A stretch of DNA of 64,000 nt, taken from the NCBI GenBank assembly GCA_963819815.1, contig CAWFXL010000001.1, positions 1,540,642-1,604,641 of the forward strand, written 5' to 3'. Shown here one piece after another: positions 6,120 through 49,200 of the stretch (position 1 is its first letter; the number at the start of each line of letters is the position of its first letter). The notes beneath the pieces were generated by a model. It saw nothing but the letters and a program-made list of their open reading frames with translations. It was not told where the DNA came from and ran no database searches. A program made the position numbers and the translations under genes. Source of the stretch: an uncultured bacterium (GTDB lineage: Bacteria > Babelota > Babeliae > Babelales > Babelaceae).

Positions 6120-8756
6120 ATGTCTGAAAAGCCGCTCACTCCTTTAATGCAGCAGTACTTTTCTTTGAAGGCTGCCTATCCTGATACCATCTTGCTCTTT
6201 CAAGTGGGAGACTTTTATGAGCTCTTTTTTGAAGATGCTCAAGTAGCTGCGTCTATTTTAGGTATCGCGCTTACCAAACGTGGATCTCATGGGGGTGAAC
6301 CGATACCTTTATGCGGAGTTCCCTTGCACGTTCGTGATCATTATCTGACGAAGTTAGTTAAAGCGGGCTTTAAGGTTGCGCTCTGTGACCAACTTGAAGA
6401 GCCGCGCCCAGGAAAATTAGTGGAGCGTGGTATTACCGCTGTGCTTACTCCAGGGACGCTCACTGACTCAAAACTGCTCGAAGAAAAGTCAGCGTCCTAT
6501 TTAGCGGTATTCTATGCGACTGAGAACTCATGGACCTTTCTCTGTGCTGAGCTTCTGACGGGACAGCTTTTTGTGACCCTTTTTTCTGAACGTACATTGA
6601 CCGCTTTAGAGGCTGAGCTTACCCGGTTTATGCCCGACGAGATGGTAGTCTTAAAAACGAAAGCTCCGAGTCCCTATGTGACCTTTTTCCAGCGACAGGG
6701 TGTGGTGGTCTCTGTGCAGGAAGCTCCCACGCCACAGGAGCAGTTTGATGCACAGGCATGGGTAGCACAACGACTCGCCGAGCCGATATCCTCTGAAAGC
6801 TTTCAGGGTGCTATAGAGCTTTTATACACCTATTTAAAAAGGACACATGAGCAGGGACTCAATGAACTAAAGCAGCTCTCATTCTACCGACCTGAGGATT
6901 ATTTACTGATTGATGCAGCAACGCAAAGGAACCTTGAGCTTGTAAAAAACAACCAAGATGGATCTTTAAAGCATACTCTTTTTTCGGTGCTCGATAAGGC
7001 AGTAACACCTATGGGTTCGCGCATGCTTAAGAAGTGGATACTTCGCCCCTTGATAAACAAAAAACATATTGAAGAGCGTCAGGATGCAGTTGAGCTGTTG
7101 GTAAAAGATCATTCATTTAAAACAGCACTCAGAACATCTTGTAAGTCCCTTGGAGATCTTGAGCGTATTATTGGTCGTATTGCGCTTCGACGGGCACATC
7201 TTCACGATTATCAAGCACTCTATGCCGCATTAACCATAGTTCCAACTATTCGGCAGCTGTTAGCAACGAAGATCTCAGAAAGTAACGTAAGCTTACTCAA
7301 GTCTTTAACGAGCCAAATTGGTGATTATGCAGCGGTTACGGCCTTGTTAGCAGATTCTATTAACGATGATACCTCAAGTGAGTGGCTTATTAAAAAAGGG
7401 TATAATGCTGAGCTTGATCGCTTACGTATGTTAGTTGAGCAGGGAGCTCAGGCAGTAGCAGCCTTTGAACAGCGGGAGCAGGAGCGAACAGGCATAACCT
7501 CTTTGAAAGTAAAATATAATCAGGTACATGGGTATGGTATTGAAGTTACCAAACCAAATCTTCATCTTGTTCCAAGCGGGTATCTCAGGATCCAGACTCT
7601 TGCAAATCGTGAGCGGTTTACGACACAGGAGCTCAAAGACCTTGAGTATGATCTAAAAAGGGCACGTGCAGATATAGCACAGGTAGAGAAAGATCTATAT
7701 GAATCGGTAAAGCAGCAGATTGAGCACCACATTCCTGCATTGAAAAAGGGTGTCTATGCACTTGCCTATGCCGATTGCCTGGAAGCTCTTGCCGAGGTTG
7801 CCTATGGAATGAGCTATGTTAAACCTGTCATGCTTACTGAACAAACCATTAGCATTAAAGACGGAAGGCATCCAGTCGTAGAAAGTCGTATACAAGAGCG
7901 CTTTATTCCCAACAGTGTCGAATTGACAGATGAGGCTTCTTTATGGATTATTACCGGTCCCAATATGGGAGGTAAGTCGACGTTTCTTAGACAAGTCGCT
8001 TTAATCTGTATTATGGCTCAGATAGGATCATTTGTACCGGCAGCTGAGGCGCATCTTGGTATTGTTGATAGAGTATTTACGCGTATTGGAGCTTCAGATA
8101 ATGTTGCTGAAGGCAAAAGTACCTTTCTTGTTGAGATGGAAGAAACGGCCCTTATTTGTAAACAGGCTACTCAGAAAAGCTTGGTTATCTTAGATGAAGT
8201 AGGCAGAGGCACGAGTACGTTTGACGGGTTAGCGATAGCACAGGCAGTTGTTGAGCATCTCTATGCGACCATACAGGCCCGCTGTCTATTTGCGACCCAT
8301 TACCATGAGCTGACCGTGTTATGTACCGCGATGCCCGGAATTAAGCCCTATTATGCGGCAAGTATGAAAGCTGATCAGACCATGGTACTTCTTCATAAAA
8401 TTTTGCCGGGAGTGGCTGATGGAAGTTTTGGATTAGAAGCAGCAGCGCTTGCTCAGGTGCCTCCAAGTATTGTGGCACGTGCGCGTGACATCGTTGCCGA
8501 GCTTACTCTCTTAGAAGGAACACGGACGCATGCTGTACCTCATACAGATGTCGGCGGCACTGTTGGAGGAGAGACTCAACATCTTAAGGCTCTGCAATTA
8601 CGCAACCAAGAACTTGAGGCCTATGTGGTGCATCTTGATAAAGAGCGAGAAAAAGGGCAGTATATTGCGGCACAGCTTGCGCAGCTCGATTATGATAACC
8701 TTAGTCCAAAGCAGGCGCTCGACCTACTGTGGCAGCTTAAACAGAGGAATCTATGA
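6120..8756 (+). CDS. mutS: DNA mismatch repair protein MutS
   Basis: TPLMQQY, GDFYELF, GPNMGGKST, STFLVEM, DEVGRGTST, FATHYHEL. Confidence 0.98.
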   Translation: MSEKPLTPLMQQYFSLKAAYPDTILLFQVGDFYELFFEDAQVAASILGIALTKRGSHGGEPIPLCGVPLHVRDHYLTKLVKAGFKVALCDQLEEPRPGKLVERGITAVLTPGTLTDSKLLEEKSASYLAVFYATENSWTFLCAELLTGQLFVTLFSERTLTALEAELTRFMPDEMVVLKTKAPSPYVTFFQRQGVVVSVQEAPTPQEQFDAQAWVAQRLAEPISSESFQGAIELLYTYLKRTHEQGLNELKQLSFYRPEDYLLIDAATQRNLELVKNNQDGSLKHTLFSVLDKAVTPMGSRMLKKWILRPLINKKHIEERQDAVELLVKDHSFKTALRTSCKSLGDLERIIGRIALRRAHLHDYQALYAALTIVPTIRQLLATKISESNVSLLKSLTSQIGDYAAVTALLADSINDDTSSEWLIKKGYNAELDRLRMLVEQGAQAVAAFEQREQERTGITSLKVKYNQVHGYGIEVTKPNLHLVPSGYLRIQTLANRERFTTQELKDLEYDLKRARADIAQVEKDLYESVKQQIEHHIPALKKGVYALAYADCLEALAEVAYGMSYVKPVMLTEQTISIKDGRHPVVESRIQERFIPNSVELTDEASLWIITGPNMGGKSTFLRQVALICIMAQIGSFVPAAEAHLGIVDRVFTRIGASDNVAEGKSTFLVEMEETALICKQATQKSLVILDEVGRGTSTFDGLAIAQAVVEHLYATIQARCLFATHYHELTVLCTAMPGIKPYYAASMKADQTMVLLHKILPGVADGSFGLEAAALAQVPPSIVARARDIVAELTLLEGTRTHAVPHTDVGGTVGGETQHLKALQLRNQELEAYVVHLDKEREKGQYIAAQLAQLDYDNLSPKQALDLLWQLKQRNL

Positions 8757-9514
8757 TATTCAAGTATCCGATCAAAAGAACTTTCAAAGTGTGTTGCTAT
8801 GCTCTTATGGTGCTCTGTGTGAGTGGCATGATACCTACTGAAGCACGCAAAAGTAAGAGCCTCCCCAGTGGTACGATTGTGATCGATCCGGGTCATGGAG
8901 GACCCTATATCGGATCTGCAAGTCCGTCACAGCAGGTGATTGAAAAACATGCTGTACTTGAGTTAGCATTGCTCCTTGCTGATCGGTTGCGAGCGAAGGG
9001 CTTTACGGTAGTGCTTACCCGTACAGGAGATTATGCACTCGACCCTCGAGACTTGATCAATGATTTGAAAATGAGGGCGTATGTAGCTCGCGAGGTGAAA
9101 GCTGATATTTTAGTGTCGCTCCATTTAAACTCTTCGCCGAATGAAAAGATTCGGGGCTATGAAGTATATGTCCCTTACGAAGATAAGTTCCCCCTAAAGT
9201 CCTATGCGTTAGCGAGTGCTATCCATTATGACTTGAGCCATGAGGTAAAGCCTGAATTTGGTGGTGGTACTCTTGGGAACGTTAATACTATTGATTTGGG
9301 TATTCGTGCTTCAAAATTTAACGTGCTCGTACACTCAGTATGTCCTTCGGTGCTTGTTGAACTTGCCTACCTCTCTCATAAGGAGACGGAAAAACAGCTT
9401 CTTACCAAAGCATATAAAGACACCCTAGTTGATGCTCTTTATTTAGGAATACAACGCTATTTTGTTCATGCAAAGACGTCTATACATACAATCAAAGCGC
9501 TACCAACTCTTTAA
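8753..9514 (+). CDS. N-acetylmuramoyl-L-alanine amidase (Amidase_3, AmiA/AmiC type)
   Basis: IDPGHGG, E..L, SLHLN and PSVLVELAYLS Zn-amidase motifs. N-terminal hydrophobic segment. ATGA overlap with mutS. Confidence 0.92.
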   Translation: MIFKYPIKRTFKVCCYALMVLCVSGMIPTEARKSKSLPSGTIVIDPGHGGPYIGSASPSQQVIEKHAVLELALLLADRLRAKGFTVVLTRTGDYALDPRDLINDLKMRAYVAREVKADILVSLHLNSSPNEKIRGYEVYVPYEDKFPLKSYALASAIHYDLSHEVKPEFGGGTLGNVNTIDLGIRASKFNVLVHSVCPSVLVELAYLSHKETEKQLLTKAYKDTLVDALYLGIQRYFVHAKTSIHTIKALPTL

Positions 9515-10735
9515 AACTCTTCCCTTTTTAAGCTGAGTCAGCAGCGTGCTTGGATAAAAGAAGCTGAGGATCGTTTTGTACGAGTGTCCTTGGAGATCCA
9601 TCGCATAGGCTCCCCATTGACAGAGCCCAATATGATGGCCGTAGCCCTTGCCCTTCATTTGGAGCATGTGTGTATGCGGAATTATTTCACAACAGGCGCT
9701 TCGCATATGCTTATAGAAGAGCATTCTAAAATCATGAGCCATCATGCGAAATGTTTTGTTTTCAGTGTCGGTTATCAGAATATTCTGGGCAATGCCTGCA
9801 AGATCGAAGCCATCGATTGCTACTGATGCAACACCCTTAAGCTCGGGGAATTCTTTTTTTAGGGGGCCTTCTACTTCAGCAAAGGGTAGTGCATTTTCCC
9901 ATCTGAAGTATTTATTGTCTTTGCAATGGGTGCATGCATAGGTTCTTTTGAGATAGGGAGCTAGCTCAAACACATCAGTTTTCTTTTCCCCCGGGATGAC
10001 TCCACCACAGACAGCACTAAACATGGCAAGGATAGGTTTCCTGTTATGAGTGATGATGAGGCCTTTTGTTGCATCAATTATTCTTTTAAGACTGACTCCT
10101 GATTCATAGCCTCTATAGACTTGGTCTTCTACGCCTGAGTATAGGTCAAAAGGATAGGGCCAGTCTCTTCCAAGTGCTCTTTTATCTGATACACGCGCTA
10201 CAGCATAGGTTCTGCAGGCAATACACATGGCTTTTTGCACTTCATCGGGCCAGCTTGGGACCCCTTCATAGGGAAGTACACATTCAATATAGGGTTCAAG
10301 TCCTACGTGGTTCACAAGGTAGGTAGCATCAGACGTTCTTTCAAGAGAAACTATTCCCGGATAGCCGATGCCATTACATTGAAGGACCCCACTTCTTGGG
10401 AGAAAAAAGAGCTGAGATCGATCGATCTTTTTGGTGTTGTAGTATAAGGAGGTGCCTTCTGAAGAGAGTTCGAGTACCTTATCATCAAGAGGTCTTGTAC
10501 GACCTGTGATAGGATCATAGAGGGAAATGCCGCCTTCGCATGAAATCTTCCAGTGCACGTTTGAAGGGAGACTTTCGCAAAGAAGAATTCGAACAGGGTG
10601 TTCAAGAGCAAGCTTTTTGTATAAGGATGCATGTTTCTGCAGAGGGAAATAAGCGTGAGCTGTTTGTGGGAGACACATCATGTCAGAGGTCATGAAGCTT
10701 ATCATCGCGAAAATATATACGTACGTACCATTCAT
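9500..10735 (-). CDS. SpoIID/LytB-family lytic transglycosylase, paralogue 1
   Basis: LVNHVGLEPYIECVLPYE (catalytic Glu), KAMCIACRTYA, DQVYRG, GYGHHIGLCQWGA, ILSFFYP. Confidence 0.9.
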   Translation of the reverse strand: MNGTYVYIFAMISFMTSDMMCLPQTAHAYFPLQKHASLYKKLALEHPVRILLCESLPSNVHWKISCEGGISLYDPITGRTRPLDDKVLELSSEGTSLYYNTKKIDRSQLFFLPRSGVLQCNGIGYPGIVSLERTSDATYLVNHVGLEPYIECVLPYEGVPSWPDEVQKAMCIACRTYAVARVSDKRALGRDWPYPFDLYSGVEDQVYRGYESGVSLKRIIDATKGLIITHNRKPILAMFSAVCGGVIPGEKKTDVFELAPYLKRTYACTHCKDNKYFRWENALPFAEVEGPLKKEFPELKGVASVAIDGFDLAGIAQNILITDTENKTFRMMAHDFRMLFYKHMRSACCEIIPHTHMLQMKGKGYGHHIGLCQWGAYAMDLQGHSYKTILSFFYPSTLLTQLKKGRVLKSW

Positions 10736-11039
10736 GGTTATTTCCTTCAAAATACTATCTTAGCTCTCTCGGTTTTCATAAGTTAGTTTTTTTAAAGAGC
10801 TTTGCACGTACTCTACTGCGAGGGCCCACAAATGTCAAAGGGAGGTGTCAGCCGTTACGCATGAATAGAGAACATTCACCGACTTACTAGCTGCAGATTC
10901 GCTTCATGCAGAGCTTCCTTGGAAAGGGCAATGGGATGGAGGTGATTTTGGACGTATCAAATTTCTTTTATGGTTGGATATTCATTTTTTTCAAACTCTG
11001 TGGTGTACGTCGCTTTTTTTGAATTGCCTTTCATGAAGA

Positions 11040-11089: not shown

Positions 11090-11860
11090 CTATACAGGTT
11101 CGATAAATATGGTGTTGCTCTGTAAAGCGCAGCTACAATATTTGTTAAATATATAGGCTTTCAGTGCATTCGCTATTCCCTGAGGAAATGGAAATTGGAT
11201 GGAGAAACTACTTTCATCATCTGACGGAGTACAATCACCGTGAACGTTTATAAAAGCTGTAAATGTAGTGGTGCTTCGGAAAGCCGAAAATGTCTGCTGA
11301 AAGGGAGTTTTAGACACTTCTTTGAAGGTAGCTGTACTAACTTCAGGTGTGGGTACAATTGCAAACTCAACGGGACCAGTATTTGTGGGGCTGCCACCTG
11401 GATTAACCACATCTAATGTGATGCATCCTTTCCCACCGCCAAGTGGCAATGAAGTAATGGTCATGCTTATTGTCTGGTTTGGGTTAGCTTCAGTAAAAGC
11501 CACTTCATATTCTATCCCTGGTGTGCCGCTAGAATCGGTTACAGTTAAATTAAATGAAACACTATCACCTCCTGCATTTGTAGGTACATCGGTAAAGTTC
11601 GCTGTTACTCCAGTTTGGGGTGCTAAATCTGTGACAGGCGTGCCGTTGGCATTGGTTATATTATAGGTATATTGACCTGAAGAAGTAGGTATACCACCAG
11701 AGGCAGTTACTGATATATTTGCTGTTGGTACTAGAGCGTCCGGATTACTACACCCATTAGGACTGATAGTTATATTTTGGATAAATAGCGGCTGAGGACC
11801 GGTCGTTTGAGCAGCTATGCTGATAGGCATTGCGAGTAAGGTGAGTAAGAGTTTCTTCAT
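11090..11860 (-). CDS. Exported SprB-repeat-like beta-sandwich protein with KYCxC tail, array unit 1
   Basis: Signal peptide MKKLLLTLLAMPISIAA, SprB-like C...ISVTASGG.P...YTY...LTVTDS, tail NALKAYIFNKYCSC. Confidence 0.85.
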   Translation of the reverse strand: MKKLLLTLLAMPISIAAQTTGPQPLFIQNITISPNGCSNPDALVPTANISVTASGGIPTSSGQYTYNITNANGTPVTDLAPQTGVTANFTDVPTNAGGDSVSFNLTVTDSSGTPGIEYEVAFTEANPNQTISMTITSLPLGGGKGCITLDVVNPGGSPTNTGPVEFAIVPTPEVSTATFKEVSKTPFQQTFSAFRSTTTFTAFINVHGDCTPSDDESSFSIQFPFPQGIANALKAYIFNKYCSCALQSNTIFIEPV

Positions 11861-11914
11861 ACACTTCCTTTGAGTGAAATTATGGATTTTGATACATATT
11901 AATGCGTGTAAACT

Positions 11915-11944
11915 AACTTACCATAGGTATTTTTTGAAAAGCAA
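11915..11944 (-). promoter_or_regulatory. Putative sigma70-type promoter repeated upstream of array genes
   Basis: Minus strand TTGCTT-N18-TAAGTT with TG upstream of the -10. Conserved upstream of units 1-4 and recognisable upstream of units 5-7. Confidence 0.55.
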
Positions 11945-12112
11945 CAATTTGTCCCTTAAGCTATCAGCCTTTCGTTGTATGAATCTCCCAAATATGTAAA
12001 TCCTATTCCTAGGCTTGTTATTGATGCAATAGATGCTGGTGTCCTCTCTCAGGGAAAGAGGGGCGCTATAAGCACCCCTCCTAACAGATTCAAAAGTTAC
12101 ATTAAGCGTGCG

Positions 12113-12877
12113 CTAGGCAGCTGTAGGTGTTACTACCTTAACCGTACCGCTCTGTAAGGTGCAGCTGCAATATTTGTTAAAAACATAGGCCTTCAATGCA
12201 TTAGATAGTCCTTGCGGAAACGGAAAATTGATTTTGAAGTCAGAAAAATCATGAGGGCAATCACCTATAACAGTAACTTCAGCAGTGAGCTCTGTGCTCC
12301 CTGGGGTTGGGAAAGCAGAAAACGTCTGTTGGAAAGGCTCTTTGGTTATTGGTGTAGAAGCAGGTTCATCTTCGGTCGATGGGAAAATTGCAAAATGAAC
12401 TTCGCCGGTACCTGTTGTGTTGCCAGCAGGATTAGTAACGAGTAAGGTAATGCAACCTGGACCAGAACCAAGAGGTAATGAGGTAATAGTCATACTAACT
12501 GATTTTGTGCCAGATTCAGTAAAAGTCACTTCATATTCTACTGGTGAGCCACTGTTTGAAGAATCGGTTACGGTTAAATTATAACTTGTACTGGTATCAT
12601 CAAGACCTGTAGCGACGTCAGTAAAGTTCGCTGTTACTCCAGTTTGGGGTGAGCCTGTGACAGCTGTGCCGCCGAGAGTAGCTAAATTATAGGTATATTG
12701 ACCTTTAGAATCAGGAGTTCCACCTGTGGCGGTCACTGATATATTTGCAGTTGGTGTACCAGTTGCTGGACACCCATTAGGACTGATAGTTATATTTTGG
12801 ATAAATAACGGCTGAGGACCTACTTGGGCCCCAAGGCTAATATGCATTGCTAGTAATGTGAGTAAGAGTTTTTTCAT
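12113..12877 (-). CDS. Exported SprB-repeat-like protein with KYCxC tail, array unit 2
   Basis: Start set at the AAAGGA-preceded ATG (MKKLLLTLL). Tail SNALKAYVFNKYCSC. Confidence 0.85.
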   Translation of the reverse strand: MKKLLLTLLAMHISLGAQVGPQPLFIQNITISPNGCPATGTPTANISVTATGGTPDSKGQYTYNLATLGGTAVTGSPQTGVTANFTDVATGLDDTSTSYNLTVTDSSNSGSPVEYEVTFTESGTKSVSMTITSLPLGSGPGCITLLVTNPAGNTTGTGEVHFAIFPSTEDEPASTPITKEPFQQTFSAFPTPGSTELTAEVTVIGDCPHDFSDFKINFPFPQGLSNALKAYVFNKYCSCTLQSGTVKVVTPTAA

Positions 12878-13131
12878 ATACTTCCTTTGAGTACGATGGT
12901 GGGTTGTTTGATAGTTAGTAACGCTTTCACAGTAACTTACCATAGACATTTTTAAGAAAGCAACAATTTGTCATTTAAGATGGCAGGTTTTTGTTGTATG
13001 AATTAGCCACAGCTGCAAACCATTTTCCTAGGCTTGTGATTGACACAATGTATGCCGGTGTTCTTTCGCATGCAAAGAGGGGCGCTTATAGCGCCCCTCC
13101 TGACAGATTCAAAAATTACATTAAGCGTGCA

Positions 13132-13911
13132 CTAAACTGTAGGTGTTACTACCTTGACCGTACTGCTCTGCAAGGTGCAGCTACAATATTTGTTAAAAAC
13201 ATAGGCCTTCAATGCATTAGATAGTCCTTGCGGAAATGGAAATACGATTTTGAAGTCAGAGCCGCCAACAATATCTTCACAATCACCGACAACGGTAACT
13301 TCAGCCGTAAGTTCTGTGTTCCCTGGGGTTGGGAAAGCAGAAAACGTCTGTTGGAAAGGCTCTTTGGTTACTATTGCAGGAGTGGGTTCATCTTCGGTTG
13401 ATGGGAAAATTGCAAATTGAACGTCACCGGTACCCGTTGTGTCGCCTGCAGGGTTAGTAACGAGTAAGGTAATGCAGCCTGCATCACTGCCAAGTGGCAA
13501 TGAATTAATGGTCATGCTTACTGATTTTGTTGCGGATTGGTTAAAAGTCACTTCATATTCTACTGGCGAGCCACTGTTTGAAGAGTCGGTTACGGTTACA
13601 TTATAATTTATCGAAGCTCCTAATTTACCAGTAGGGACATCAACAAAGTTCGCTGTTACGGCAGTTTGAGATGGGAAATCTGCAACAGGCGTACCGTTGA
13701 GATTGGTTAAAGTATAGGTATATTGACCTGAAGAATTAGGAGTACCACCTGAAGCGGTTACCGATATAGTTGATCCGGAGAATGGATTTATTTCTCCATC
13801 AAAACACCCATTCGGGCTGAAAGTTATATTTTGGATGAACAACGGCTGAGGACCCACTTGTGCAGCAAGACTGATGGGCATTACGAGTAATGTGAGTAAG
13901 AGTTTCTTCAT
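13132..13911 (-). CDS. Exported SprB-repeat-like protein with KYCxC tail, array unit 3
   Basis: Paralogue of units 1-2. Tail SNALKAYVFNKYCSC. Confidence 0.85.
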   Translation of the reverse strand: MKKLLLTLLVMPISLAAQVGPQPLFIQNITFSPNGCFDGEINPFSGSTISVTASGGTPNSSGQYTYTLTNLNGTPVADFPSQTAVTANFVDVPTGKLGASINYNVTVTDSSNSGSPVEYEVTFNQSATKSVSMTINSLPLGSDAGCITLLVTNPAGDTTGTGDVQFAIFPSTEDEPTPAIVTKEPFQQTFSAFPTPGNTELTAEVTVVGDCEDIVGGSDFKIVFPFPQGLSNALKAYVFNKYCSCTLQSSTVKVVTPTV

Positions 13912-14164
13912 ACACTTCCTTTGAGTGAAATTGTGGATTCTGATACATATATTAACGTGTCTAAACTAACTTACCATAGACATTTTTTGAAAAGCAACAA
14001 TTTGTCCTTTAAGATATCTGGTTATCATTTTATGAATTACCCACAACTGCGAACGATTCTCCAGGCTTGTTATTGGTGCACTATTAGTAGTGCATTTTTC
14101 TCATGCAAAAAGGGGCGCCGAAGCGCCCCTTTACTATCAAAAGAAATTAAATTATGCAGATGCA

Positions 14165-14944
14165 CTAGGCTGTAGGTGTTACTACCTTAACGGTACTGCT
14201 CTGTAATGTGCAGTTGCAATATTTGTTAAAAATATAAGCCTTCAGTGCATTAGATAATCCTTGAGGAAATGGAAATACGATTTTGAAGTCAGCGACGCCA
14301 TCGCCATTGTCACAATCACCGTCAATCGTAACTTCAGCGGTGAGCTCTGTGCTCCCTGGGGTTGGGAAAGCAGAAAACGTCTGTTGGAAAGGGACCTCGG
14401 TTAATGTCGTAGGAGTAGGCTCGTCCTCAGTAGATGGAAAAATTGCGAATTGAACTGGGTTAGGATTCGTTGTGTTGCCTGCAGGGTTAATAACGAGTAA
14501 GGTAATGCAGCCTGCACCACTGCCAAGTGGCAATGAATTAATGGTCATGCTTACTGATTTTGTTGCGGATTGATTAAAAGTCACTTCATATTCTACTGGC
14601 GCGCCACTGTTTGAAGAGTCGGTTACGGTTAAATTATAACTTGTAGGGTCTTCGTTAATAGCTGTAGGGACATCAATAAAGTTTGCTGTTACTCCAGTTT
14701 GGGGCGAGCCCGTGACAGCATCGCCACTCAGGTCAGCTAAGTTATAGGTATATTGACCTTTAGAATCAGGAGTTCCACCTGTGGCGGTTACCGATATAGT
14801 TGATGCGGGGTGTGGATTTGTAGTTGCATTAAAACACCCATTAGGACTGATAGTTATATTTTGGATAAACAACGGCTGAGGACCCGTCGTCTGAGCAACA
14901 ATGCTGATAGGCATTGCGAGTAATGTGAGTAAGAGTTTCTTCAT
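14165..14944 (-). CDS. Exported SprB-repeat-like protein with KYCxC tail, array unit 4
   Basis: Start at the RBS-preceded ATG 14944. Tail SNALKAYIFNKYCNC. Confidence 0.85.
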   Translation of the reverse strand: MKKLLLTLLAMPISIVAQTTGPQPLFIQNITISPNGCFNATTNPHPASTISVTATGGTPDSKGQYTYNLADLSGDAVTGSPQTGVTANFIDVPTAINEDPTSYNLTVTDSSNSGAPVEYEVTFNQSATKSVSMTINSLPLGSGAGCITLLVINPAGNTTNPNPVQFAIFPSTEDEPTPTTLTEVPFQQTFSAFPTPGSTELTAEVTIDGDCDNGDGVADFKIVFPFPQGLSNALKAYIFNKYCNCTLQSSTVKVVTPTA

Positions 14945-15196
14945 ACACTTCCTTTGAGTGAAATTGTGGATTTTGAACATATATTAACGCGTTTAAACTA
15001 ACTTACCATAGACATTTTTTCAAAAGCAACAATTTGTCCTTTAAGATATCAGATTTTTGTTGTATGAATCGCTCACAGCTGCAAACCATTTCCCTGGGCT
15101 TGTGATTGGTCAATATATGCAGCGGTCCTGTCTCATGCAAAGAGGGGCGCTTATAGCGCCCCTCCTAACAGATTCAAAAATTACATTAAGTGTGCA

Positions 15197-15967
15197 CTAG
15201 GCTGTAGGTGTTACTACCTTGACCGTACTGCTCTGCAAGGTGCAGCTGCAATATTTGTTAAAAATATAGGCTTTCAGTGCATTCGATAGTCCCTGAGGAA
15301 AGGGAAATACGATTTTATAGTCAGCAATTCCATCTTCGTCCGTACAATCGCCGTGAACCGTAACTTCAGCCGTAAGTTCTGTGCTCCCCGGAGTTGGGAA
15401 GGCAGAAAAGATTTGCTGGAAAGGCGCTTTGGTCAGTGTTGTAGGAGTAGGCTCGTCATCGGTAGATGGGAAAATTGCAAAGTCAACTGTGCCAGTACCC
15501 GTAGTATTGCCTGCAGGATTAGTAACGAGTAAGGTAATGCAGCCTGCACCACTGCCAAGTGGCAATGAAGTAATGGTCATGCTTATTGTCTGGTTTGAGT
15601 TAGCTTCACCAAGAGTCACCTCATATTCTACTGGTGACCCAGTGCTTGAAGAATCGGTTACGGTTACATTAAAACTTCTGGAGTCCCCGTCATTATCTAA
15701 AGGGAGATCAGTAAAGTTTGCCGTTACAGCAGTTTGGGGCTCTGGAGCAAATGGGCCATCCAGTTCAACTAACGTATAGGTATATTGCCCTGAAGAACTA
15801 GGAGTACCACCTGAGGCGGTCACTGATATATTTGCCGTTGGTGTACCAGTTGTAAGACACCCATTAGGACTGATAGTTATATTTTGGATAAACAGCGGCT
15901 GAGGACCCGTCGTCTGAGCAACAATGCTGATAGGCATTGCCAGTAATGTGAGTAAGAGTTTCTTCAT
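15197..15967 (-). CDS. Exported SprB-repeat-like protein with KYCxC tail, array unit 5
   Basis: Start at the RBS-preceded ATG 15967. Tail SNALKAYIFNKYCSC. Confidence 0.85.
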   Translation of the reverse strand: MKKLLLTLLAMPISIVAQTTGPQPLFIQNITISPNGCLTTGTPTANISVTASGGTPSSSGQYTYTLVELDGPFAPEPQTAVTANFTDLPLDNDGDSRSFNVTVTDSSSTGSPVEYEVTLGEANSNQTISMTITSLPLGSGAGCITLLVTNPAGNTTGTGTVDFAIFPSTDDEPTPTTLTKAPFQQIFSAFPTPGSTELTAEVTVHGDCTDEDGIADYKIVFPFPQGLSNALKAYIFNKYCSCTLQSSTVKVVTPTA

Positions 15968-16206
15968 TAACTTCCTTTGAGTAAAATTGTGGATTTTGAA
16001 CATATATTAACGCGTCTATGGTAACTTTACCATAAGTGTTTTTAAAAAAGCAATCTTTTTTAACCTTTTGTTTGTGATTTCTTTTCTACAACCTCCCTCA
16101 TATTCTTGAACTATTAAGATAATTTATATAGTTGCTAACCCAAAAGGGGCGCTTAAGCGCCCCCTACTTTTCAAAAATTAAATATGAATCCAAGCATACC
16201 AGTATT

Positions 16207-16926
16207 TCAGGATACCGGTATTGTATTACTGCTTAGATTGCAATTGCAATATTTGTTAAAAATGTACGCTTTCAAATCATTAGCATTTCCTTGCGGAAAA
16301 GGGAATTGTATTTCAAAGAAGCTTGTTTCGTTAGGAGCGCAGTCATTCTGGACTTCAACTACTGCTGTAAGTGTCGATGTTCCGGGAGTGCGGAATGCAG
16401 CAAATTGTTGAGTGAATGGAGCAGGTATTTCTTTCCCATTTTGTGTGGCAATTACTTGAGAGGACCCAATGCCAACTATGGCCGAACCAGTTAGCTTTCC
16501 TCCGGGTCCGAAGACTTGCAAGGATATGCATCCTGGTGCATTGCCAAGTGGTAATGAAATTATATTCATGGCTATTTGCAGAGTTTGAGAAACAGGAAGC
16601 ACGAGCATAGTTGTTACAGTATTATTCGCTGAATCTGTTACTTGCAACGTTGTAGGCTCTTCTACAGGAACGTTTGCAAAACTGGCAGTTGGCACCGTTA
16701 ATGGAGAACCACCGAAGGGTTTGTTTTCTACGAGTAATGTATACGTATAGGGAGGTTGACCACCTGCAGCCGTTGCTAAGATGTTTGCCGTCGCTGCAAT
16801 TCCTGGATTGGGATTGGCACACCCTTGAGGATTGATGGTAATATTTGAGAAATATAATGGTTGCGGACCCGACAGAGCAGCAAGGCTAGCAGGGAGCATA
16901 AGTAATGTAAGTAAAAGTTTCTTCAT
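16207..16926 (-). CDS. Exported SprB-repeat-like protein with KYCxC tail, array unit 6 (second subfamily)
   Basis: ATAAGGQPPYTYTL motif. Tail ANDLKAYIFNKYCNC. Confidence 0.85.
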   Translation of the reverse strand: MKKLLLTLLMLPASLAALSGPQPLYFSNITINPQGCANPNPGIAATANILATAAGGQPPYTYTLLVENKPFGGSPLTVPTASFANVPVEEPTTLQVTDSANNTVTTMLVLPVSQTLQIAMNIISLPLGNAPGCISLQVFGPGGKLTGSAIVGIGSSQVIATQNGKEIPAPFTQQFAAFRTPGTSTLTAVVEVQNDCAPNETSFFEIQFPFPQGNANDLKAYIFNKYCNCNLSSNTIPVS

Positions 16927-17094
16927 GAGTTTCCTTTTTGGTAAAATATGTTTGGCATGTAATACGCGTCATAAGCTAAATTACCATAAGCCTTTTTAAA
17001 AAAGCAACGATTTGCCTTTTTTTTTTACGAGCATTCTGTTGAAAGACTCAAAGCACATTTCGGTATGACCAGTGATAATACTAGATTTCTTGCT

Positions 17095-17240
17095 AACACG
17101 AGGGACGCTAAAAATCCCTACCTATCTAAAAAAATATGATTAATCTATAGATGCTGAACACCTGACGATAAGTTGTATGGTAATTCTGTAAGGTGCTACC
17201 ATACCACTTGTTACCTATATAAGCCTTCTGGGGCACAAGG
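17095..17240 (-). pseudogene. Decayed 3' remnant of an eighth array unit
   Basis: Minus strand reads PQKAYIGNKWYGSTLQN (compare ALKAYIFNKYCSCTLQS), followed by the degenerate terminator AGGGACGCT..ATCCCT. Confidence 0.6.
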
Positions 17241-17320
17241 AATGACTTTTGATTTTTCGTTCGTAATTTCTTTTTTAACCGCCATTGCACTCTTGAACTA
17301 GTAAGAGAGTTTCATAGAGT

Positions 17321-17360
17321 TGCGTAGCATAGGGGCGCTTAAACGCCCCTATGCTACGCA
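17321..17360 (-). terminator. Extended terminator hairpin of array unit 7
   Basis: TGCGTAGCATAGGGGCG-cttaaa-CGCCCCTATGCTACGCA, a perfect 17-bp stem. Confidence 0.75.
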
Positions 17361-17392
17361 GAAAGAATGTAATGCAAGCAGGCGCAGTACTT

Positions 17393-18112
17393 TTAGGATA
17401 CTGGTATTGTGTTTTTGCTTAGAGCACAGCTGCAATATTTGTTAAAGACGTATGCTTTTAAGGCATTAGAGATTCCTTGGGGAAAAGGAAATGTGATACT
17501 AAAAACGCTACTTGAACCAGTTGTGCAATCATTTTCGACTATTACTACTGCTGTAAGTGTCGATGTCCCTGGCGTTCTGAATGCGGCAAATTGCTGAATA
17601 AAAGGCGCGGGGAATAATTTCGCATTCGTTTCGGCAATTGGCAAAGAAGATCCAATGCCAACAAAAGCTGAGCCAGTAAGTTTTCCTCCAGGTCCGACAA
17701 CTTGCAAGGTAAAGCAGCCTGGAGCATTGCCAAGTGGCAATGAGGTAATATTCATGCTTACTTGCAGAGTTTGAGAAGTAGGAAGTGTAATGGTATTGGT
17801 TACAGAATTATTTGCAGAATCTGTTACCGTCAAAATCACAAGCGAGTTAACGGGGATACCGGCAAAATTTGCAGTTGCCGTTGTTAACGGAGAACCACCG
17901 AAAGGCTTGCCTTCTACGAGTAATGTGTACGTATAGGGAGGTTGCCCACCTGCAGCCGTTGCTAAGATATTTGCCGTTGGTGCAAGTGCCGGGTTGGGAT
18001 TGGTGCATCCTTGGGGGTTGATGGTAAGATTTGAAATATATAAGGGTTGAGGACCTGCCAGAGCAGCAAGGCTCATAGGCATGATGAGTAATGTGAGCAA
18101 AAGCTTCTTCAT
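17393..18112 (-). CDS. Exported SprB-repeat-like protein with KYCxC tail, array unit 7 (second subfamily)
   Basis: Close paralogue of unit 6. Tail SNALKAYVFNKYCSC. Confidence 0.85.
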   Translation of the reverse strand: MKKLLLTLLIMPMSLAALAGPQPLYISNLTINPQGCTNPNPALAPTANILATAAGGQPPYTYTLLVEGKPFGGSPLTTATANFAGIPVNSLVILTVTDSANNSVTNTITLPTSQTLQVSMNITSLPLGNAPGCFTLQVVGPGGKLTGSAFVGIGSSLPIAETNAKLFPAPFIQQFAAFRTPGTSTLTAVVIVENDCTTGSSSVFSITFPFPQGISNALKAYVFNKYCSCALSKNTIPVS

Positions 18113-18198
18113 GAGCATCCTTTTTAGTAAAAACGTTTTTTAACAGAGAATAACTCGTTTAACCAAACTACCATAAGCATTTTTACAAAGACAAGACT

Positions 18199-19401
18199 TT
18201 ATCTCTTATGTGTTACTGTACCTAAACTCTCGTAGGCCGCGAGGCTCGTCTCTGGATAGTAAAACTCTAGAATCTCCTGATGCGAGTAGCCCAGGTTTGC
18301 CATCACATAAGCTCCCCATTGGCATAACCCTATATGATGCCCATGACCTTTTCCATGTGCGTTAAGGATGCCATTCTGTGTAGAAATGCTGCAGCAGAGG
18401 CTCCGTATTTTAGGGAACAGCATTCTAAAGTCATGTGCACACATGAGGACGGTCTTTTTTGAACCGGTAAGCACTAGTTGTTGAGCAATACCCGCTTGAT
18501 CAAATGACTTGATATGGATCTCTTTGAGCTGTCCAAGCGCCGGAAAAACTTTTTGCAAAGGACCTTCAAGCTCTTTGAGCGTATAGGTTGTTTTCCAGGT
18601 ATACAAGGGTTGGTCTTTGCAGTGAGTACAGGCATAGGGCCTTTTTAAATAGGGAGCTTTTGTGTAGATCGATGATTTTTTTTCGGCAGGGATGATGCCG
18701 CCACATACGGCGCTATACATAGCAAGAATTGGCTTTCCGTCTTGCGTGATAATAATACCCTTGGTTTCATCTACGATTTTTTTAAGAGATGTTTTACATG
18801 CCTGGCCACGATAGACTTGGTCAAGTACGGTATTCTTGAGGTCGTAGGGCAGTGAGTCATTTCGTTCTGATTGAATTTTGTAGACAGCATAGGTCCGACA
18901 GGCTATGCAGAGTGCTTTCTGCACCACATCGGGCCAACTTGGAATACTCTCGTAAGGAAGTACTGCAGCAATATAGTCTTCAAGGCCGATATGGTTTACT
19001 AGAGAAGCTCTTCCCTCATGATCATGGAGTGCACATGTTCCCTCATAGGGTATCGATTCAAAACTAATGAGTCCCTTACTCGGAATAAGGAAAAGCTGCT
19101 CACAGGGATATCGTTTTCCATTGGCGATAAAAGCTCCCGACGTACGAGTTACCAGAAGCTCTTTGTCATGTATGCGCTGTACCATCTTTGTGTGTGGATT
19201 ATAGAGAAAGAATCCATGAGGGCTTGAAAAGGTCCAAGCGATTTCTCCAGAAGGCTTCTCTTGTAAAAGTACGCGTACCGGGTTGTCTAGATGCATCTTT
19301 TCAAGAGCCGATGCTCGAGTGCTTTTTTCTAGCGCATTTGTAGTTGTATATGAAATGGTCAGTAAAAGCAGGCATGCAATGTGAGCATGTGATAGCTTCA
19401 T
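18199..19401 (-). CDS. SpoIID/LytB-family lytic transglycosylase, paralogue 2
   Basis: LVNHIGLEDYIAAVLPYE, KALCIACRTYA, DQVYRG, GHGHHIGLCQWGA, signal peptide. Confidence 0.9.
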   Translation of the reverse strand: MKLSHAHIACLLLLTISYTTTNALEKSTRASALEKMHLDNPVRVLLQEKPSGEIAWTFSSPHGFFLYNPHTKMVQRIHDKELLVTRTSGAFIANGKRYPCEQLFLIPSKGLISFESIPYEGTCALHDHEGRASLVNHIGLEDYIAAVLPYESIPSWPDVVQKALCIACRTYAVYKIQSERNDSLPYDLKNTVLDQVYRGQACKTSLKKIVDETKGIIITQDGKPILAMYSAVCGGIIPAEKKSSIYTKAPYLKRPYACTHCKDQPLYTWKTTYTLKELEGPLQKVFPALGQLKEIHIKSFDQAGIAQQLVLTGSKKTVLMCAHDFRMLFPKIRSLCCSISTQNGILNAHGKGHGHHIGLCQWGAYVMANLGYSHQEILEFYYPETSLAAYESLGTVTHKR

Positions 19402-33824: not shown

Positions 33825-34814
33825 TTATGCTGCCGACGTCTCTTCTTCAGGTCGGTTTGCCCGTGCTACTTTTTTAAACGCGGCACTCTGTGCTAATGAC
33901 GCTGCTACAGATGATCCTTGAGGTTTCTTTTGAGCAACGTTCTGTTCTCCTACAGGACGCAAAGTTTTACCTGCTCGAATTGAAGCCAGTAGATCGGAGC
34001 GACCTTCTTGAGGTGCTGGCGTCTCTTCTTCTACTACGATCTTTGGAGCTGGAGGTTTTACGGCAGGTTGTTTTGAAGGCATCGGTGGGGGTACGGGTAT
34101 AGATGTTTTTTGAGCCGGTTGTGCAGCTGCTATAGGTTTTGCAGGGGGTACCGCTGGTACGGGCCTTGCAACGGGTGCTGGGGGCGTAGCAGCTTTTTTA
34201 GGCGCTGGTTGTGCAGCCGGTGCAGGTTTTGCAACAGGTGCTGGAGGTGCCTTTACCGTAATAGCTAATGCAGTGACAGTTCTTGCATTTCTTAATGTAC
34301 TTAAACCGGTATCAGTTTTATCCAATTTCCCTTTAGCGGGACCTGTTTGTGGTCGCAGTATGCCACCTGGGTCAGCAGTGAGGTATCCCGTTTCATCAGC
34401 ATTTAATTTGTAAAGCTTTGTTGGGGTAGTTTCTGTTGAAGCAGGTTCGCTTGTCCATACGAAAATTTCGTAGGGCTTGTCGATAGGTGCTTCAAATGGT
34501 TGAGTTTTTCCAGCTGCCACTTTGGTAATCTCTTTATTATCCTGTGTATAGAAAGACTCATCAGTTTTAATGGCTACCCAAATATCGTTGCCTTTATTCT
34601 TGATTTCGATACTTACAGGAGTAAATTGTTTATCGCCTTTTGCAGCGCCTGGTTTGTATACTTTTGCAGATTCAGTAAGAGTTTTAGCTTGCGTAGCTAG
34701 ATCCTTAGCCTTTAGAGCGGTGTCTTTTACCTGTTTAAATAGATCTCCGATGCCGGCCTGGGCTGATGAGATAGATAGTGCAGCTCCAGCGAGCAGCAAT
34801 ATTAATTTATTCAT
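33825..34814 (-). CDS. Exported proline-rich protein with WH2 actin-binding motif
   Basis: Signal peptide, globular N-domain, Pro/Ala-rich linker and GRSDLLASIRAGKTLRPV. Confidence 0.8.
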   Translation of the reverse strand: MNKLILLLAGAALSISSAQAGIGDLFKQVKDTALKAKDLATQAKTLTESAKVYKPGAAKGDKQFTPVSIEIKNKGNDIWVAIKTDESFYTQDNKEITKVAAGKTQPFEAPIDKPYEIFVWTSEPASTETTPTKLYKLNADETGYLTADPGGILRPQTGPAKGKLDKTDTGLSTLRNARTVTALAITVKAPPAPVAKPAPAAQPAPKKAATPPAPVARPVPAVPPAKPIAAAQPAQKTSIPVPPPMPSKQPAVKPPAPKIVVEEETPAPQEGRSDLLASIRAGKTLRPVGEQNVAQKKPQGSSVAASLAQSAAFKKVARANRPEEETSAA

Positions 34815-35513: not shown

Positions 35514-36512
35514 CTACTTTGCAGGTACTACAGTAGGCGCACAATTGCAATATTTGGTGAAGATGTAGTTTGCAATACTATTACTATTAATGGTAGGGGT
35601 GCTCATACATCCTGATGGTGTCAAACCTGAAACAGGGGTAAGCCCTTGCGGCACCTTAAATTTTTGTTGGAGTGCTAGCAAGGTCCCATCTGCAACCATA
35701 TCCGTAATGGCTTGCTGAATATTTGCATAGAGCTGACAGCTGCCTGAAGGGATGGCAATACCAAGTCCCTGAGTAGGATCAGCACCCGCAGTATTCACCG
35801 CATTATTTACTACCACCAAGCCTGATGTACCAGCGACCCCTGCTAGCGGCTCTCCAGCTTGTAACGCTGAAGCAGAAGCACTATTTACAAGTAAGGCACC
35901 AATGTCGAAATGATTTATAAGTGCAAAAAGTGCATCCTCTAAATTAGTTTGTATAACTTTACCCACCTCCAAACTAGGAAAGCCGGCAAGAACGGCATTT
36001 TCATGCGATCCTGGGATTACCCCAACATTTGCAGAAATATCATTCAGTTGACTTAAAATTGTGGCCCGATTGGGATTATCAAGCAAAGGGTCGTTGCTTA
36101 AAAGCACAACACCAAGCTGATCTTCGGAGTATTTAACAAAGGAAACACTGCCTGCAGGTACATCAACTGTAGCTGAAGGAGCTATAGACATCGCAGAAAT
36201 CACAATATCGATCGGGCTGTTTGGCTCAATAAGCGTTGTCAGTAAACTTGTAAAGGGCACTTCTACAAAGCTCACCCCATTGAACCCAAGGCGATGTGCT
36301 ATTTCGCAAGCAACGGCACCATCGTATCCAATAATTAGGCCCTTGTTATTGGTTTCATAAGGAACATTCCCTATAGTTCCATTAAAATCTGAACCGACCA
36401 TAAGTAGCTGGTTACGATTCGCACCACCATTAGATGGTCCTGTTGTATGCACAAGTGTAATGATTCCCAGTGCAGCGAGCACACTGAGCAGGCGTATGGT
36501 TAATTTATTCAT
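35514..36512 (-). CDS. Amino-acid-type solute-binding (SBP_bac_3-like) protein with KYCxC tail
   Basis: LIIGYDGAVACEIAHRLG, VPFTSLLTTL, IDIVISAMSI, IQQAITDMVADGT...KF. C-terminus NSIANYIFTKYCNC. Confidence 0.8.
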   Translation of the reverse strand: MNKLTIRLLSVLAALGIITLVHTTGPSNGGANRNQLLMVGSDFNGTIGNVPYETNNKGLIIGYDGAVACEIAHRLGFNGVSFVEVPFTSLLTTLIEPNSPIDIVISAMSIAPSATVDVPAGSVSFVKYSEDQLGVVLLSNDPLLDNPNRATILSQLNDISANVGVIPGSHENAVLAGFPSLEVGKVIQTNLEDALFALINHFDIGALLVNSASASALQAGEPLAGVAGTSGLVVVNNAVNTAGADPTQGLGIAIPSGSCQLYANIQQAITDMVADGTLLALQQKFKVPQGLTPVSGLTPSGCMSTPTINSNSIANYIFTKYCNCAPTVVPAK

Positions 36513-47686: not shown

Positions 47687-48832
47687 TTAAGCTGCGTGAG
47701 CTGTTTTTGGTGACCGCAATATATGTGGCTTTTGGTACAACAATACGGAGGCACCCACAACAACAGCAAGGGCTAAGACCTCGATGAATCGGGATGAACC
47801 CTTTTTGTCGAAATCGGTTGATTTGGCGGTAGCGCTATTGATTTCCGGTTTTGGTACTGGCTTATCGCTTTGGAGTGTAGCTACTGGGGTTGGACTTGGG
47901 GTTATCATGAATCCAAAACCTTCATCCAGATCAAAGCTTCGGGTTCTCAAAGACGTTGAATCTACATCATCTTCTTGTAGCTCTGGGTTATCGCCTCGGG
48001 GCATATCTACCGGGGTAGGGGTTATTGATTCAGTATCTTCATCTACATTAAAGCCTTGGATTGTCAAAAACGTTGGATCTTCCTCATTTTGAGTTCTGGC
48101 TGTGCTATTATTTGACCAACAACCAAAAATAGTAGGCCAAGTAAAATGAGGACAATCGGGCGGCATAAACATTGACGCTGTTGAACTGGCCTCGGCATGT
48201 AAGAATGATGCCATTGAGCTAGCCTCAGTACGTAAGAAGCTCCAAGCGTTTGAGAAAACTTGCCGTAAAGATCTTGATACAGATATTTCATTTGAGAAGA
48301 TTTGGTAACCTACGTCAGCTGGCGAAAAACGTGCAGAGTCACTGGCAAAACCAAATGAGGCTGGTGTTATTACAAGCGCTGGAGTGGTATTCCCTAGGCC
48401 AGCGTAGAAACTATCTCGGAAGTGGCTGGACCTGTCAACATCGTGAAGGCGATTCATCCTACTCATTAGATCCTGCTGTAGAAGCTGCAAGGTTTCATAG
48501 CTCATTGCATCGTCTGAACCATATCTGGTGCCTGGTCGATCTGATGCGGCTGCTCTTTTAGTTTCATCAATTTTGCGACAAAAAGGGCAGCTGAAATAAT
48601 CTTTCGTTGCTCTATCCCAACACTCTGAACAAATTGCTTTGTTTTTACAGCAGGGAGTAGTAAAATCAGCTTTTTTGTCTACGCATATTGTACAGACATT
48701 ATCTTCTTTTGCTTGAGGAGCTGTCTCTGACTCAGTTGTCTGTTCATTGTTAGTATCTGGTTGAGCAGCATAAAGTGGACATCCTAAAGCTAGGATGACT
48801 GTTCCAAGACACAGTGTATACACAAATTTCAT
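47687..48832 (-). CDS. Signal-peptide, C-terminally anchored protein with RING-like Zn finger
   Basis: GGAGG before ATG 48832. CTIC..PCC..CSEC..CPFCRK and C-terminal TM LALAVVVGAS. Confidence 0.8.
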   Translation of the reverse strand: MKFVYTLCLGTVILALGCPLYAAQPDTNNEQTTESETAPQAKEDNVCTICVDKKADFTTPCCKNKAICSECWDRATKDYFSCPFCRKIDETKRAAASDRPGTRYGSDDAMSYETLQLLQQDLMSRMNRLHDVDRSSHFRDSFYAGLGNTTPALVITPASFGFASDSARFSPADVGYQIFSNEISVSRSLRQVFSNAWSFLRTEASSMASFLHAEASSTASMFMPPDCPHFTWPTIFGCWSNNSTARTQNEEDPTFLTIQGFNVDEDTESITPTPVDMPRGDNPELQEDDVDSTSLRTRSFDLDEGFGFMITPSPTPVATLQSDKPVPKPEINSATAKSTDFDKKGSSRFIEVLALAVVVGASVLLYQKPHILRSPKTAHAA

Positions 48833-49200
48833 ACTAATCCTCCACAAGGATTCTATGTTTTTATACGATTTAGTGTAGCATATGCTTACCAAAAGTCCTA
48901 GAGCCCCTGCTTCTCTAGAACTAGACGGCATTGGCTAATCATAAAGAGTCTTCATAATCGCACCACCCATCAAACCAGATGACATCATATGATTTATGAA
49001 TCGCTGGTGCTGACCGCTTCCTTTGAGAGGGTGATGAGTCTATATCTGAACGAAACATGAGCCTAGGCTGTTTCTGAACGCCTTTTTTGCAGCATCTGAT
49101 AAGCTATTGGTATGTATGCCACTAGGTGACTATGATTTGAAGCATTGAATCAAAAGAATAGGGGCCCAATGCTGGACCCCTACGTACAAATTCTAGGTCT

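Follow-up and report, generated by a model that had tools for sequence, protein, structure and literature searches.

The window analysed here is a 64,000-nucleotide stretch (G000:C1:1540642-1604641) of an uncultured Dependentiae bacterium whose genome, G000, is assembled as 1.64 Mb in two contigs (C1 and C2). It encodes eight exported proteins that share a short C-terminal tail. Seven of them form a tandem array of SprB-like exported proteins on the reverse strand (11090-18118; 239-278 residues as listed), recognized from the open reading frames (ORFs) at 11090-11860, 12113-12949, 13132-13911, 14165-14980, 15197-16003, 16207-16926 and 17393-18118 and their translations. All seven end in FPFPQG-x-(S/A)N(A/D)LKAY(I/V)FNKYC(S/N)C plus 10-15 residues. 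The eighth, P0001, is an exported SBP_bac_3-like solute-binding protein (SBP) of 332 residues, likewise defined by its ORF and translation (35514-36512, reverse strand), and its C-terminus reads SNSIANYIFTKYCNCAPTVVPAK. The end common to the eight is N-x-[IL]-x-x-[YF]-I-F-x-K-Y-C-x-C followed by 8-15 residues. In P0001 the tail module covers residues 302-332 (35517-35609, reverse strand) and consists of Cys302, a linker, the helix motif N-S-I-A-N-Y-I-F-T-K-Y-C322, then C324 and the stub APTVVPAK; positions 35514-35590 hold the stop codon and the P0001 tail. By inspection, the N-termini of all eight proteins are Sec-type.

The tail is carried by bodies that differ in fold. PF00497 (SBP_bac_3) matches P0001 at 41.2 bits (E 1.7e-10), above its gathering cut-off of 26.4, and no ABC permease gene was seen near the P0001 locus. 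The SprB repeat model PF13573 was matched by the array proteins only below threshold, the best window protein reaching 20.2 bits against a cut-off of 28; the label SprB-like was given to them by an earlier sequence-only reading of this DNA. A tail-bearing relative, P0009, scores 94 bits to the same model. The AlphaFold2 (AF2) model of the protein at 13132-13911, with a mean predicted local distance difference test score (pLDDT) of 85.8, contains two beta-sandwich domains, and Foldseek matched the array protein model to FN3/Ig tandems at a TM-score of 0.43 or less. The AF2 model of P0001 (mean pLDDT 78) has a confident SBP body. Since an SBP_bac_3 domain and two beta-sandwich domains are unrelated folds, the central claim of the sequence-only reading, a shared tail on eight exported proteins of unrelated folds, was borne out. 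The tail segment is predicted to be helical in the AF2 models of both families. In P0001 it is modelled as a helix (312-317) and a strand (327-330) at pLDDT 37-58, showing that the module is not confidently packed against the SBP body. The same reading had described the tail as an amphipathic helix and not a transmembrane segment. The second half of this description agrees with our results, as no transmembrane segment was found. The first half does not: the helical hydrophobic moment of the segment is low (0.05-0.33), so the helix is not notably amphipathic, and an amphipathic membrane-binding helix is not supported.

We compared the tails of the two families with each other. When the profile of 15 SBP tails was aligned with that of 19 SprB-like tails (hhalign), the probability was 97.6% over 19 columns, with a P value of 2.7e-12 that is generous because the segments had been pre-cut by a regular expression. 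When a hidden Markov model (HMM) of one family's tails was run over 27,129 six-frame ORFs, its best foreign matches were the tails of the other family, at E 0.013-0.42 only. At the nucleotide level the tails of the two families are 48-57% identical, which rules out a recent DNA transfer between the SBP and SprB-like families. These comparisons indicate that the tail copies are homologous, forming one C-terminal module on signal-peptide proteins of different folds.

Over all six-frame ORFs of G000, the tail HMM found 19 matches at E 3.8e-6 or better, comprising 12 full-length SprB-like proteins with two fragments and four full-length SBP-like proteins with one fragment. In all 19 the match ends 6-19 residues ahead of the stop codon. 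An SBP paralogue in this genome, C1_1504114, has the lipobox LLGC and a single tail Cys (KYCPQ), the second tail Cys being absent. Two weaker matches were also seen. A 41-codon ORF (G000:C1:1414112-1414363, E 0.079) consists of a signal peptide and a single-Cys tail motif only; it is kept in G027 (contig C2) with three amino-acid substitutions, and may represent a tail peptide in free form or the remains of a gene. The other match (E 0.17) is an internal tail copy in a 709-residue beta-helix protein.

To the 261 Dependentiae genomes we applied a 20-column tail profile (E 1e-3 or better), which had matches in G000, in seven other members of the G000 genus and in G019; a match in G171 proved to be MreB. 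On inspection, weaker but genuine-looking tails were recognized in G013, G005, G029 and G224, and G033 has a diverged SBP tail. A 47-column profile searched against 1.84 billion representative proteins, also at E 1e-3 or better, gave 34 matches, of which two Cys-less repeat proteins were judged false and 32 true carriers. Their passengers are about 16 SBP_bac_3 proteins, about 13 SprB-like proteins, one three-repeat SprB protein, one Ig protein (Big_7, P0007) and one lactonase-type beta-propeller (P0012), to which the genome scans add a protein with five DUF11 domains (G019) and a second propeller (P0013, in G005). Outside Dependentiae, nothing credible was found in 185,579 species genomes scanned with a G000-type, and hence narrow, pattern: 3 of 153 pattern matches were confirmed, two of them in one Dependentiae metagenome-assembled genome (MAG), and the third, a 40-codon frame in a Flavobacteriales MAG, was judged a chance match. 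The module has become attached to Sec-exported proteins with five folds or more, all in a single Dependentiae clade, and within the 261 genomes it is restricted to one genus and a few relatives, in keeping with the lineage specificity proposed by the sequence-only reading. The proteome scan proposed in that reading had a mixed outcome, as G000 itself yielded only two families and the mini-ORF, whereas across genomes several folds appeared, with Ig, beta-propeller and DUF11 passengers beyond the two families of the window.

The carriers also define the architecture of the tail. K-[YF]-C is present in 31 of the 32, and a second Cys follows 1-3 residues later in 29 (C-x1-C in 22, C-x2-C in five, C-x3-C in two). 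A further Cys lies 12-40 residues ahead of the motif in 28/32. The N-terminus is signal-peptide-like in 31/32, the exception being a truncated gene call, and the last motif Cys stands 3-21 residues before the protein end in 30/32. The expected bias towards the C-terminus of signal-peptide proteins is therefore present, although the tail is not strictly terminal in P0018 and P0037. These two metagenome tail-SBPs continue past KYCPC for 120-144 charged, low-complexity residues. A gene 3' of an OMP (outer-membrane protein) gene in G029 (L126:3781-4311) encodes 177 residues with no Pfam match; judged by eye, its signal peptide is alike and its C-terminal part is likewise charged. In G000 and G027, the SBP and SprB-like tails alike have Tyr as the aromatic residue ahead of I-F, whereas those of G026 and G028 have Phe; the residue may change together with a common partner, or the difference may simply be drift between lineages.

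The tail resembles no described signal that we could find, as the sequence-only reading had suggested. None of the CTERM models of Pfam and NCBIfam matched any of 22 tails at E 10 or better or any of four whole proteins, and at the same threshold the tails matched no Pfam or NCBIfam model of any kind. In PDB sequences the tail profile had no match better than E 0.88, and a search of the ESM Atlas with the tail was uninformative (best scores 0.82). Nor did we find an account of the tail in the literature on surface, secreted, Cys-rich outer-membrane or SprB proteins of Dependentiae/TM6. A report on Cys-containing tripartite CTERM signals describes them as a motif combined with a transmembrane helix and a cluster of Arg, and describes MYXO-CTERM as often having two close but non-adjacent Cys (GCGC) and as being paired with CPBP enzymes (10.1101/2023.06.07.544157). 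Like MYXO-CTERM, the Dependentiae tail is a short C-terminal tag with a near-invariant Cys and often a second Cys close by, is carried by exported proteins of unrelated folds and is restricted to a lineage. It differs in that a conserved 12-residue helix precedes the Cys, that no transmembrane segment follows the motif, where the trailing 3-21 residues of 30/32 carriers are a mixture of Thr, Ser, Val and Pro, and that no Arg-rich or basic C-terminal cluster occurs in the tails inspected, only the G019 protein ending in basic residues. The tail proteins of G032 end at ...KYCSNC. Lacking both a transmembrane segment and an Arg cluster, the tail is not a tripartite CTERM signal. In addition, the curated models fail to match it, and no strictly co-occurring CPBP enzyme was found: within the taxonomic family, PF02517 (CPBP) is present in 10 of 13 tail-bearing genomes and in 4 of the remaining 28, with two genes in G000, and was not found in tail-bearing G028 (97% complete), G026 and G005.

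A second point of comparison is the C-terminal domain (CTD) of the type IX secretion system (T9SS), which on Bacteroidota SprB is a beta-sandwich of about 70-80 residues. The likeness lies in a C-terminal element common to SprB-repeat and other surface proteins. The T9SS model TIGR04183 (Por_Secre_tail), however, has no match in the 22 tails or the four whole proteins searched. TIGR04183 and SprA_N were also not found in the G000 genome, an absence that is weakly shown because the control genomes were silent too. Taken together, these comparisons identify the tail as a real, undescribed and lineage-restricted C-terminal module.

Cysteine counts point to an unusual chemistry of the module. We counted Cys in 34 full-length proteins with a two-Cys tail, excluding by eye those of the signal peptide, and found an odd number in 33; many of the 34 are paralogues, so that independent support comes to about 10 lineages. 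The mature array proteins have five Cys each. Both single-Cys tails, in the lipobox SBP C1_1504114 and in P0013, belong to proteins with even counts. An odd count implies one unpaired thiol. The SBP alignment shows no variation at C69, C259, C302 and C322, in contrast to C324. In a SprB-like variant that has 3 Cys, C36 and C200 have been lost as a pair, which implies that one tail Cys pairs with C140. On the simplest reading, the first motif Cys would be stapled within the protein and the second would remain unpaired. As the spacing of the second Cys is variable, an exposed thiol fits better than a metal site. G000 encodes VKOR (E 9.5e-25), and neither DsbA nor DsbB was detectable in this genome.

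By clustering the neighbours of tail genes we found a recurrent family of putative Cys-rich OMPs, with a signal peptide, N-terminal C-x3-C-like repeats and a C-terminal ...GKATISF. It has no Pfam match at E 0.001 or better, and the OMP profile has no match in the PDB. Of the 261 Dependentiae genomes, 260 have members of the wide family, several paralogues in each, and it is probably the main outer-membrane protein family of the phylum. It is thereby ruled out as a clade-specific partner, and only one subfamily is informative about the tail. In four genomes (G028, G030, G031 and G034) a tail-SBP gene lies 24-30 bp downstream of, and on the same strand as, a gene for an OMP of this subfamily, of about 510-550 residues; in G026 the distance is about 200 bp. 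G030 has a second, paralogous OMP-SBP pair with an SBP_bac_3 partner at a gap of 13 bp, and G013, from another genus, has an OMP-SBP_bac_3 pair at 25 bp. Both metagenome contigs that were retrieved, one of them 2655 bp long, show the same arrangement. G026 excepted, the tail-SBP genes of such pairs stand 13-50 bp from the OMP gene ahead of them. The tail-SBPs P0017, P0018, P0032 and P0039 and the OMPs P0061, P0050, P0067 and P0086 come from contigs equal in length and with overlapping sources, which suggests further OMP-SBP pairs; the pair on the 2655-bp contig is one that proved real.

A similar arrangement appears to exist in G000 itself. At 62911-63996 of the window (forward strand) lies the 5' part of an OMP-subfamily gene, encoding a Cys-rich putative OMP with 45-53% identity to the operonic OMPs of G026, G028, G030 and G031 and cut by the end of C1. 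Read as its reverse complement, the C2 end opens with GKWGISW-stop, the last seven codons of this OMP type, followed by two tail-SBP genes (C2 38485-39456 and 37398-38402, within C2:37398-39507). From these sequences, C1 and C2 appear to adjoin each other by their 3' ends (C2 as reverse complement), with an OMP-SBP-SBP unit spanning the assembly gap. P0001 is a dispersed paralogue of the operon-linked tail-SBPs. The cut gene and two genes before it (58374-60284 and 60330-62282) encode Cys-rich secreted proteins of the OMP family with 18-27 Cys and no Pfam match. A second G000 OMP paralogue lies 1.4 kb from a SprB-like tail gene, and 2 of 12 tail loci are within 2 kb of the two OMP-subfamily genes (permutation P 0.004).

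The subfamily also follows the tail across genomes. At E 1e-50 or better, 13 of 13 tail-bearing genomes in the taxonomic family have it, compared with 4 of the remaining 28, a contrast that overstates independence because the genomes are related and the tail-positive set was drawn with unequal thresholds. When G001-G005 of genus g2 were searched again, the subfamily was found in G005 only (9e-55 against 1e-15 to 1e-20), and G006 of the same genus has no match to it at E 1e-50. Within g2, credible tail proteins occur in G005 only, 3.3 kb from the OMP-subfamily gene. Members of the subfamily have an odd Cys count in 28 of 36 cases (totals 10-29; binomial p 0.0012). Genome comparison thus identifies this one OMP subfamily as the strongest genomic tie of the tail. 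Near the OMP gene of G005, locus L085 (G005:C1:823000-840000) also encodes a secreted FAD_binding_4/BBE oxidase that ends in the tail look-alike ..IQQKYCPRFIPI, an autotransporter and a second propeller whose last residue is Cys. We take such by-eye look-alikes at OMP loci (G024, G013, G022 and the FAD/BBE protein of G005) as no more than leads.

We tentatively favour the view, which we hold at somewhat less than an even chance, that the tail is a docking and disulfide-tethering tag on the envelope. That the tail and the OMP subfamily together make up an undescribed covalent docking system for Sec-exported proteins, acting through a disulfide to a dedicated outer-membrane partner, is a more specific proposal and a less probable one. 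The tail itself is a mobile module of about 30-45 residues. A Cys comes first, 12-40 residues ahead of the motif, and a linker leads from it to an N-capped helix of the form N-x-[IL]-x-x-[YFA]-I-[FIL]-x-K-[YF]-C; another Cys stands 1-3 residues beyond, and a short stub of Val, Ile, Thr and Pro ends the module. Its first motif Cys would be stapled to a Cys of the same protein and its second left unpaired. The helix may dock the cargo on the OMP or on the Cys-rich N-terminal extension of the OMP, and the free thiol could then form an intermolecular disulfide in a VKOR-oxidised periplasm. Among the three mechanisms that the sequence-only reading offered, disulfide tethering, Cys lipidation and metal-bridged oligomerisation, the first has indirect backing from Cys parity and linkage to a Cys-rich OMP. 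The tail would accordingly serve for envelope retention or tethering and would not be a cleaved sorting signal. The sequence-only reading had proposed a sorting or anchoring signal; what stands of this is a portable, near-terminal element on exported proteins, while the transmembrane segment and basic cluster of known signals are missing.

Several observations weigh against this tethering proposal. In G000, 10 of 12 tail loci have no OMP-subfamily gene within 26 kb, the array and P0001 among them. An HMM test at 13 further OMP loci found tail-like scores of at least 5 bits in 2 of 23 adjacent genes and 1 of 50 others, which is not significant (Fisher p 0.23, Mann-Whitney p 0.34). The tail look-alikes that adjoin OMP genes in G022 have no Cys, and the operonic OMP of G034 is a pseudogene with 16 stops beside an intact SBP. 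The assignment of the family as OMPs is itself thin, resting on a signal peptide, a C-terminal ...ISF and weak matches to PF13557 in 3 of 50 members, and as the wide family is near-universal in the phylum, only the subfamily tracks the tail. The Cys counts have exceptions, with 8 of 36 subfamily members even and one G030 tail-SBP containing 8 Cys. Finally, the tail helix in the model of the protein at 13132-13911 (233-243, pLDDT 84-88) is confidently placed, which would also fit a purely structural cap.

Much of the same evidence can be read in other ways. The tail could be an export signal and the adjacent OMP a dedicated outer-membrane translocon that brings cargo to the surface, a reading for which Slam and two-partner systems offer a comparison. 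OMP-cargo operons and co-occurrence fit it too, the cargo types (SprB-like, Ig, propeller, DUF11) are typical of surface proteins, and the motif is near the C-terminus in 30/32 carriers. We nevertheless consider it rather unlikely, as most tail genes have no OMP gene beside them, the OMP has no similarity to known translocators (Pfam at E 0.001, PDB), P0018 and P0037 extend far past the motif, and odd Cys parity is left without a role. Parity is better accommodated if the tail is a disulfide oligomerisation module, in which the free Cys joins tail proteins as homo- or heterodimers or a lattice and the OMP is not involved. The odd counts in 33/34 proteins, the near-identical tail in twelve G000 paralogues and a helix that is hydrophobic on several faces, suggesting burial, are all consistent with this. 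Such a module would leave unexplained the operon linkage, the co-occurrence with the OMP subfamily and the odd parity of the OMP itself, and we rate it somewhat below export.

Two further possibilities seem to us improbable to a similar degree. Under one, the tail would be a Cys-modified sorting signal like MYXO-CTERM: a lipid would be attached to the Cys, and an Rce1-like CPBP protease would cut off the stub. The frequent GCGC motif and CPBP pairing of MYXO-CTERM, as given in the report cited (10.1101/2023.06.07.544157), and the CPBP distribution described above, including the two G000 genes, speak for it. A soluble tail would, however, be out of reach of an intramembrane protease. The remaining 3-21 residues are insufficiently hydrophobic, there is neither a transmembrane segment nor an Arg cluster, no NCBIfam CTERM model matches, and three tail-bearing genomes are without a detected CPBP gene. 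The other makes the tail no more than a C-terminal structural cap; domain shuffling would have spread a disulfide-stapled helix that has no shared function in sorting or anchoring. This would suit the confident helix in the SprB-like AF2 model, a first motif Cys that appears paired within the same protein and the presence of only two families in G000. A cap would not be expected on five folds or as a mini-ORF conserved in G027, nor would it be expected to keep an unpaired Cys or to track one OMP subfamily, and in the SBP model the tail is unpacked from the body. Tethering by docking and disulfide is the reading to which we return below.

A disulfide-tethered envelope would have a parallel in the chlamydial outer-membrane complex, which consists of disulfide-cross-linked MOMP, OmcA and OmcB. 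Tethered binding and adhesin-like proteins on a disulfide-linked envelope would, by analogy, give Dependentiae a comparable surface. In both cases the bacteria are of the obligate intracellular type and have outer-membrane proteins rich in Cys as well as a protein of the DUF11/OmcB-like kind; in Dependentiae the latter is the tail carrier of G019 with five DUF11 domains, which matches Chlam_OMP6 at 6.7e-10. An inter-protein disulfide network is a further likeness, though for Dependentiae it is only proposed. The Dependentiae OMP family differs in having no detectable sequence relation to MOMP, and we know of no modular tethering tag in the chlamydial complex. SBPs that are anchored or surface-exposed are also familiar, among them lipoprotein SBPs and chlamydial ArtJ. 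Here too an SBP_bac_3 protein would be held at the envelope, and the G000 paralogue with the lipobox LLGC is the one that lacks the second tail Cys. The putative anchor differs in being a C-terminal Cys-helix tag coupled to an OMP gene, an arrangement that to our knowledge has not been described for SBPs.

If the tail and the OMP subfamily do form a covalent docking system, Dependentiae would have a modular, disulfide-built surface or periplasmic layer, with binding proteins coupled directly to an outer-membrane channel. Short C-terminal tags common to exported proteins of unrelated kinds have more than once pointed the way to envelope machinery not known before; sortases, exosortases, rhombosortases, T9SS and myxosortases are examples. 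The present tag departs from the pattern of motif, membrane helix and basic cluster, and its apparently unpaired Cys and tie to an OMP suggest a different attachment principle. It would offer a first handle on surface construction in these uncultured, host-dependent bacteria, and on the reason for having orphan solute-binding proteins encoded beside an OMP gene.

Other genes of the window deserve brief mention. Two SpoIID-domain paralogues (9500-10750 and 18199-19401) flank the seven-gene SprB-like array, and an Amidase_3 gene lies at 8753-9514. The gene at 47687-48931 encodes 414 residues with 13 Cys and weak matches to the RING-finger models zf-C3HC4_3 and Prok-RING_4, both below their cut-offs. 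A WH2 motif (PF02205, just over cut-off), which is a eukaryote-type actin-binding motif, was found in the proteins at 33825-34814 and 49201-51390; both have signal-peptide-like N-termini and are possible host-directed effectors.

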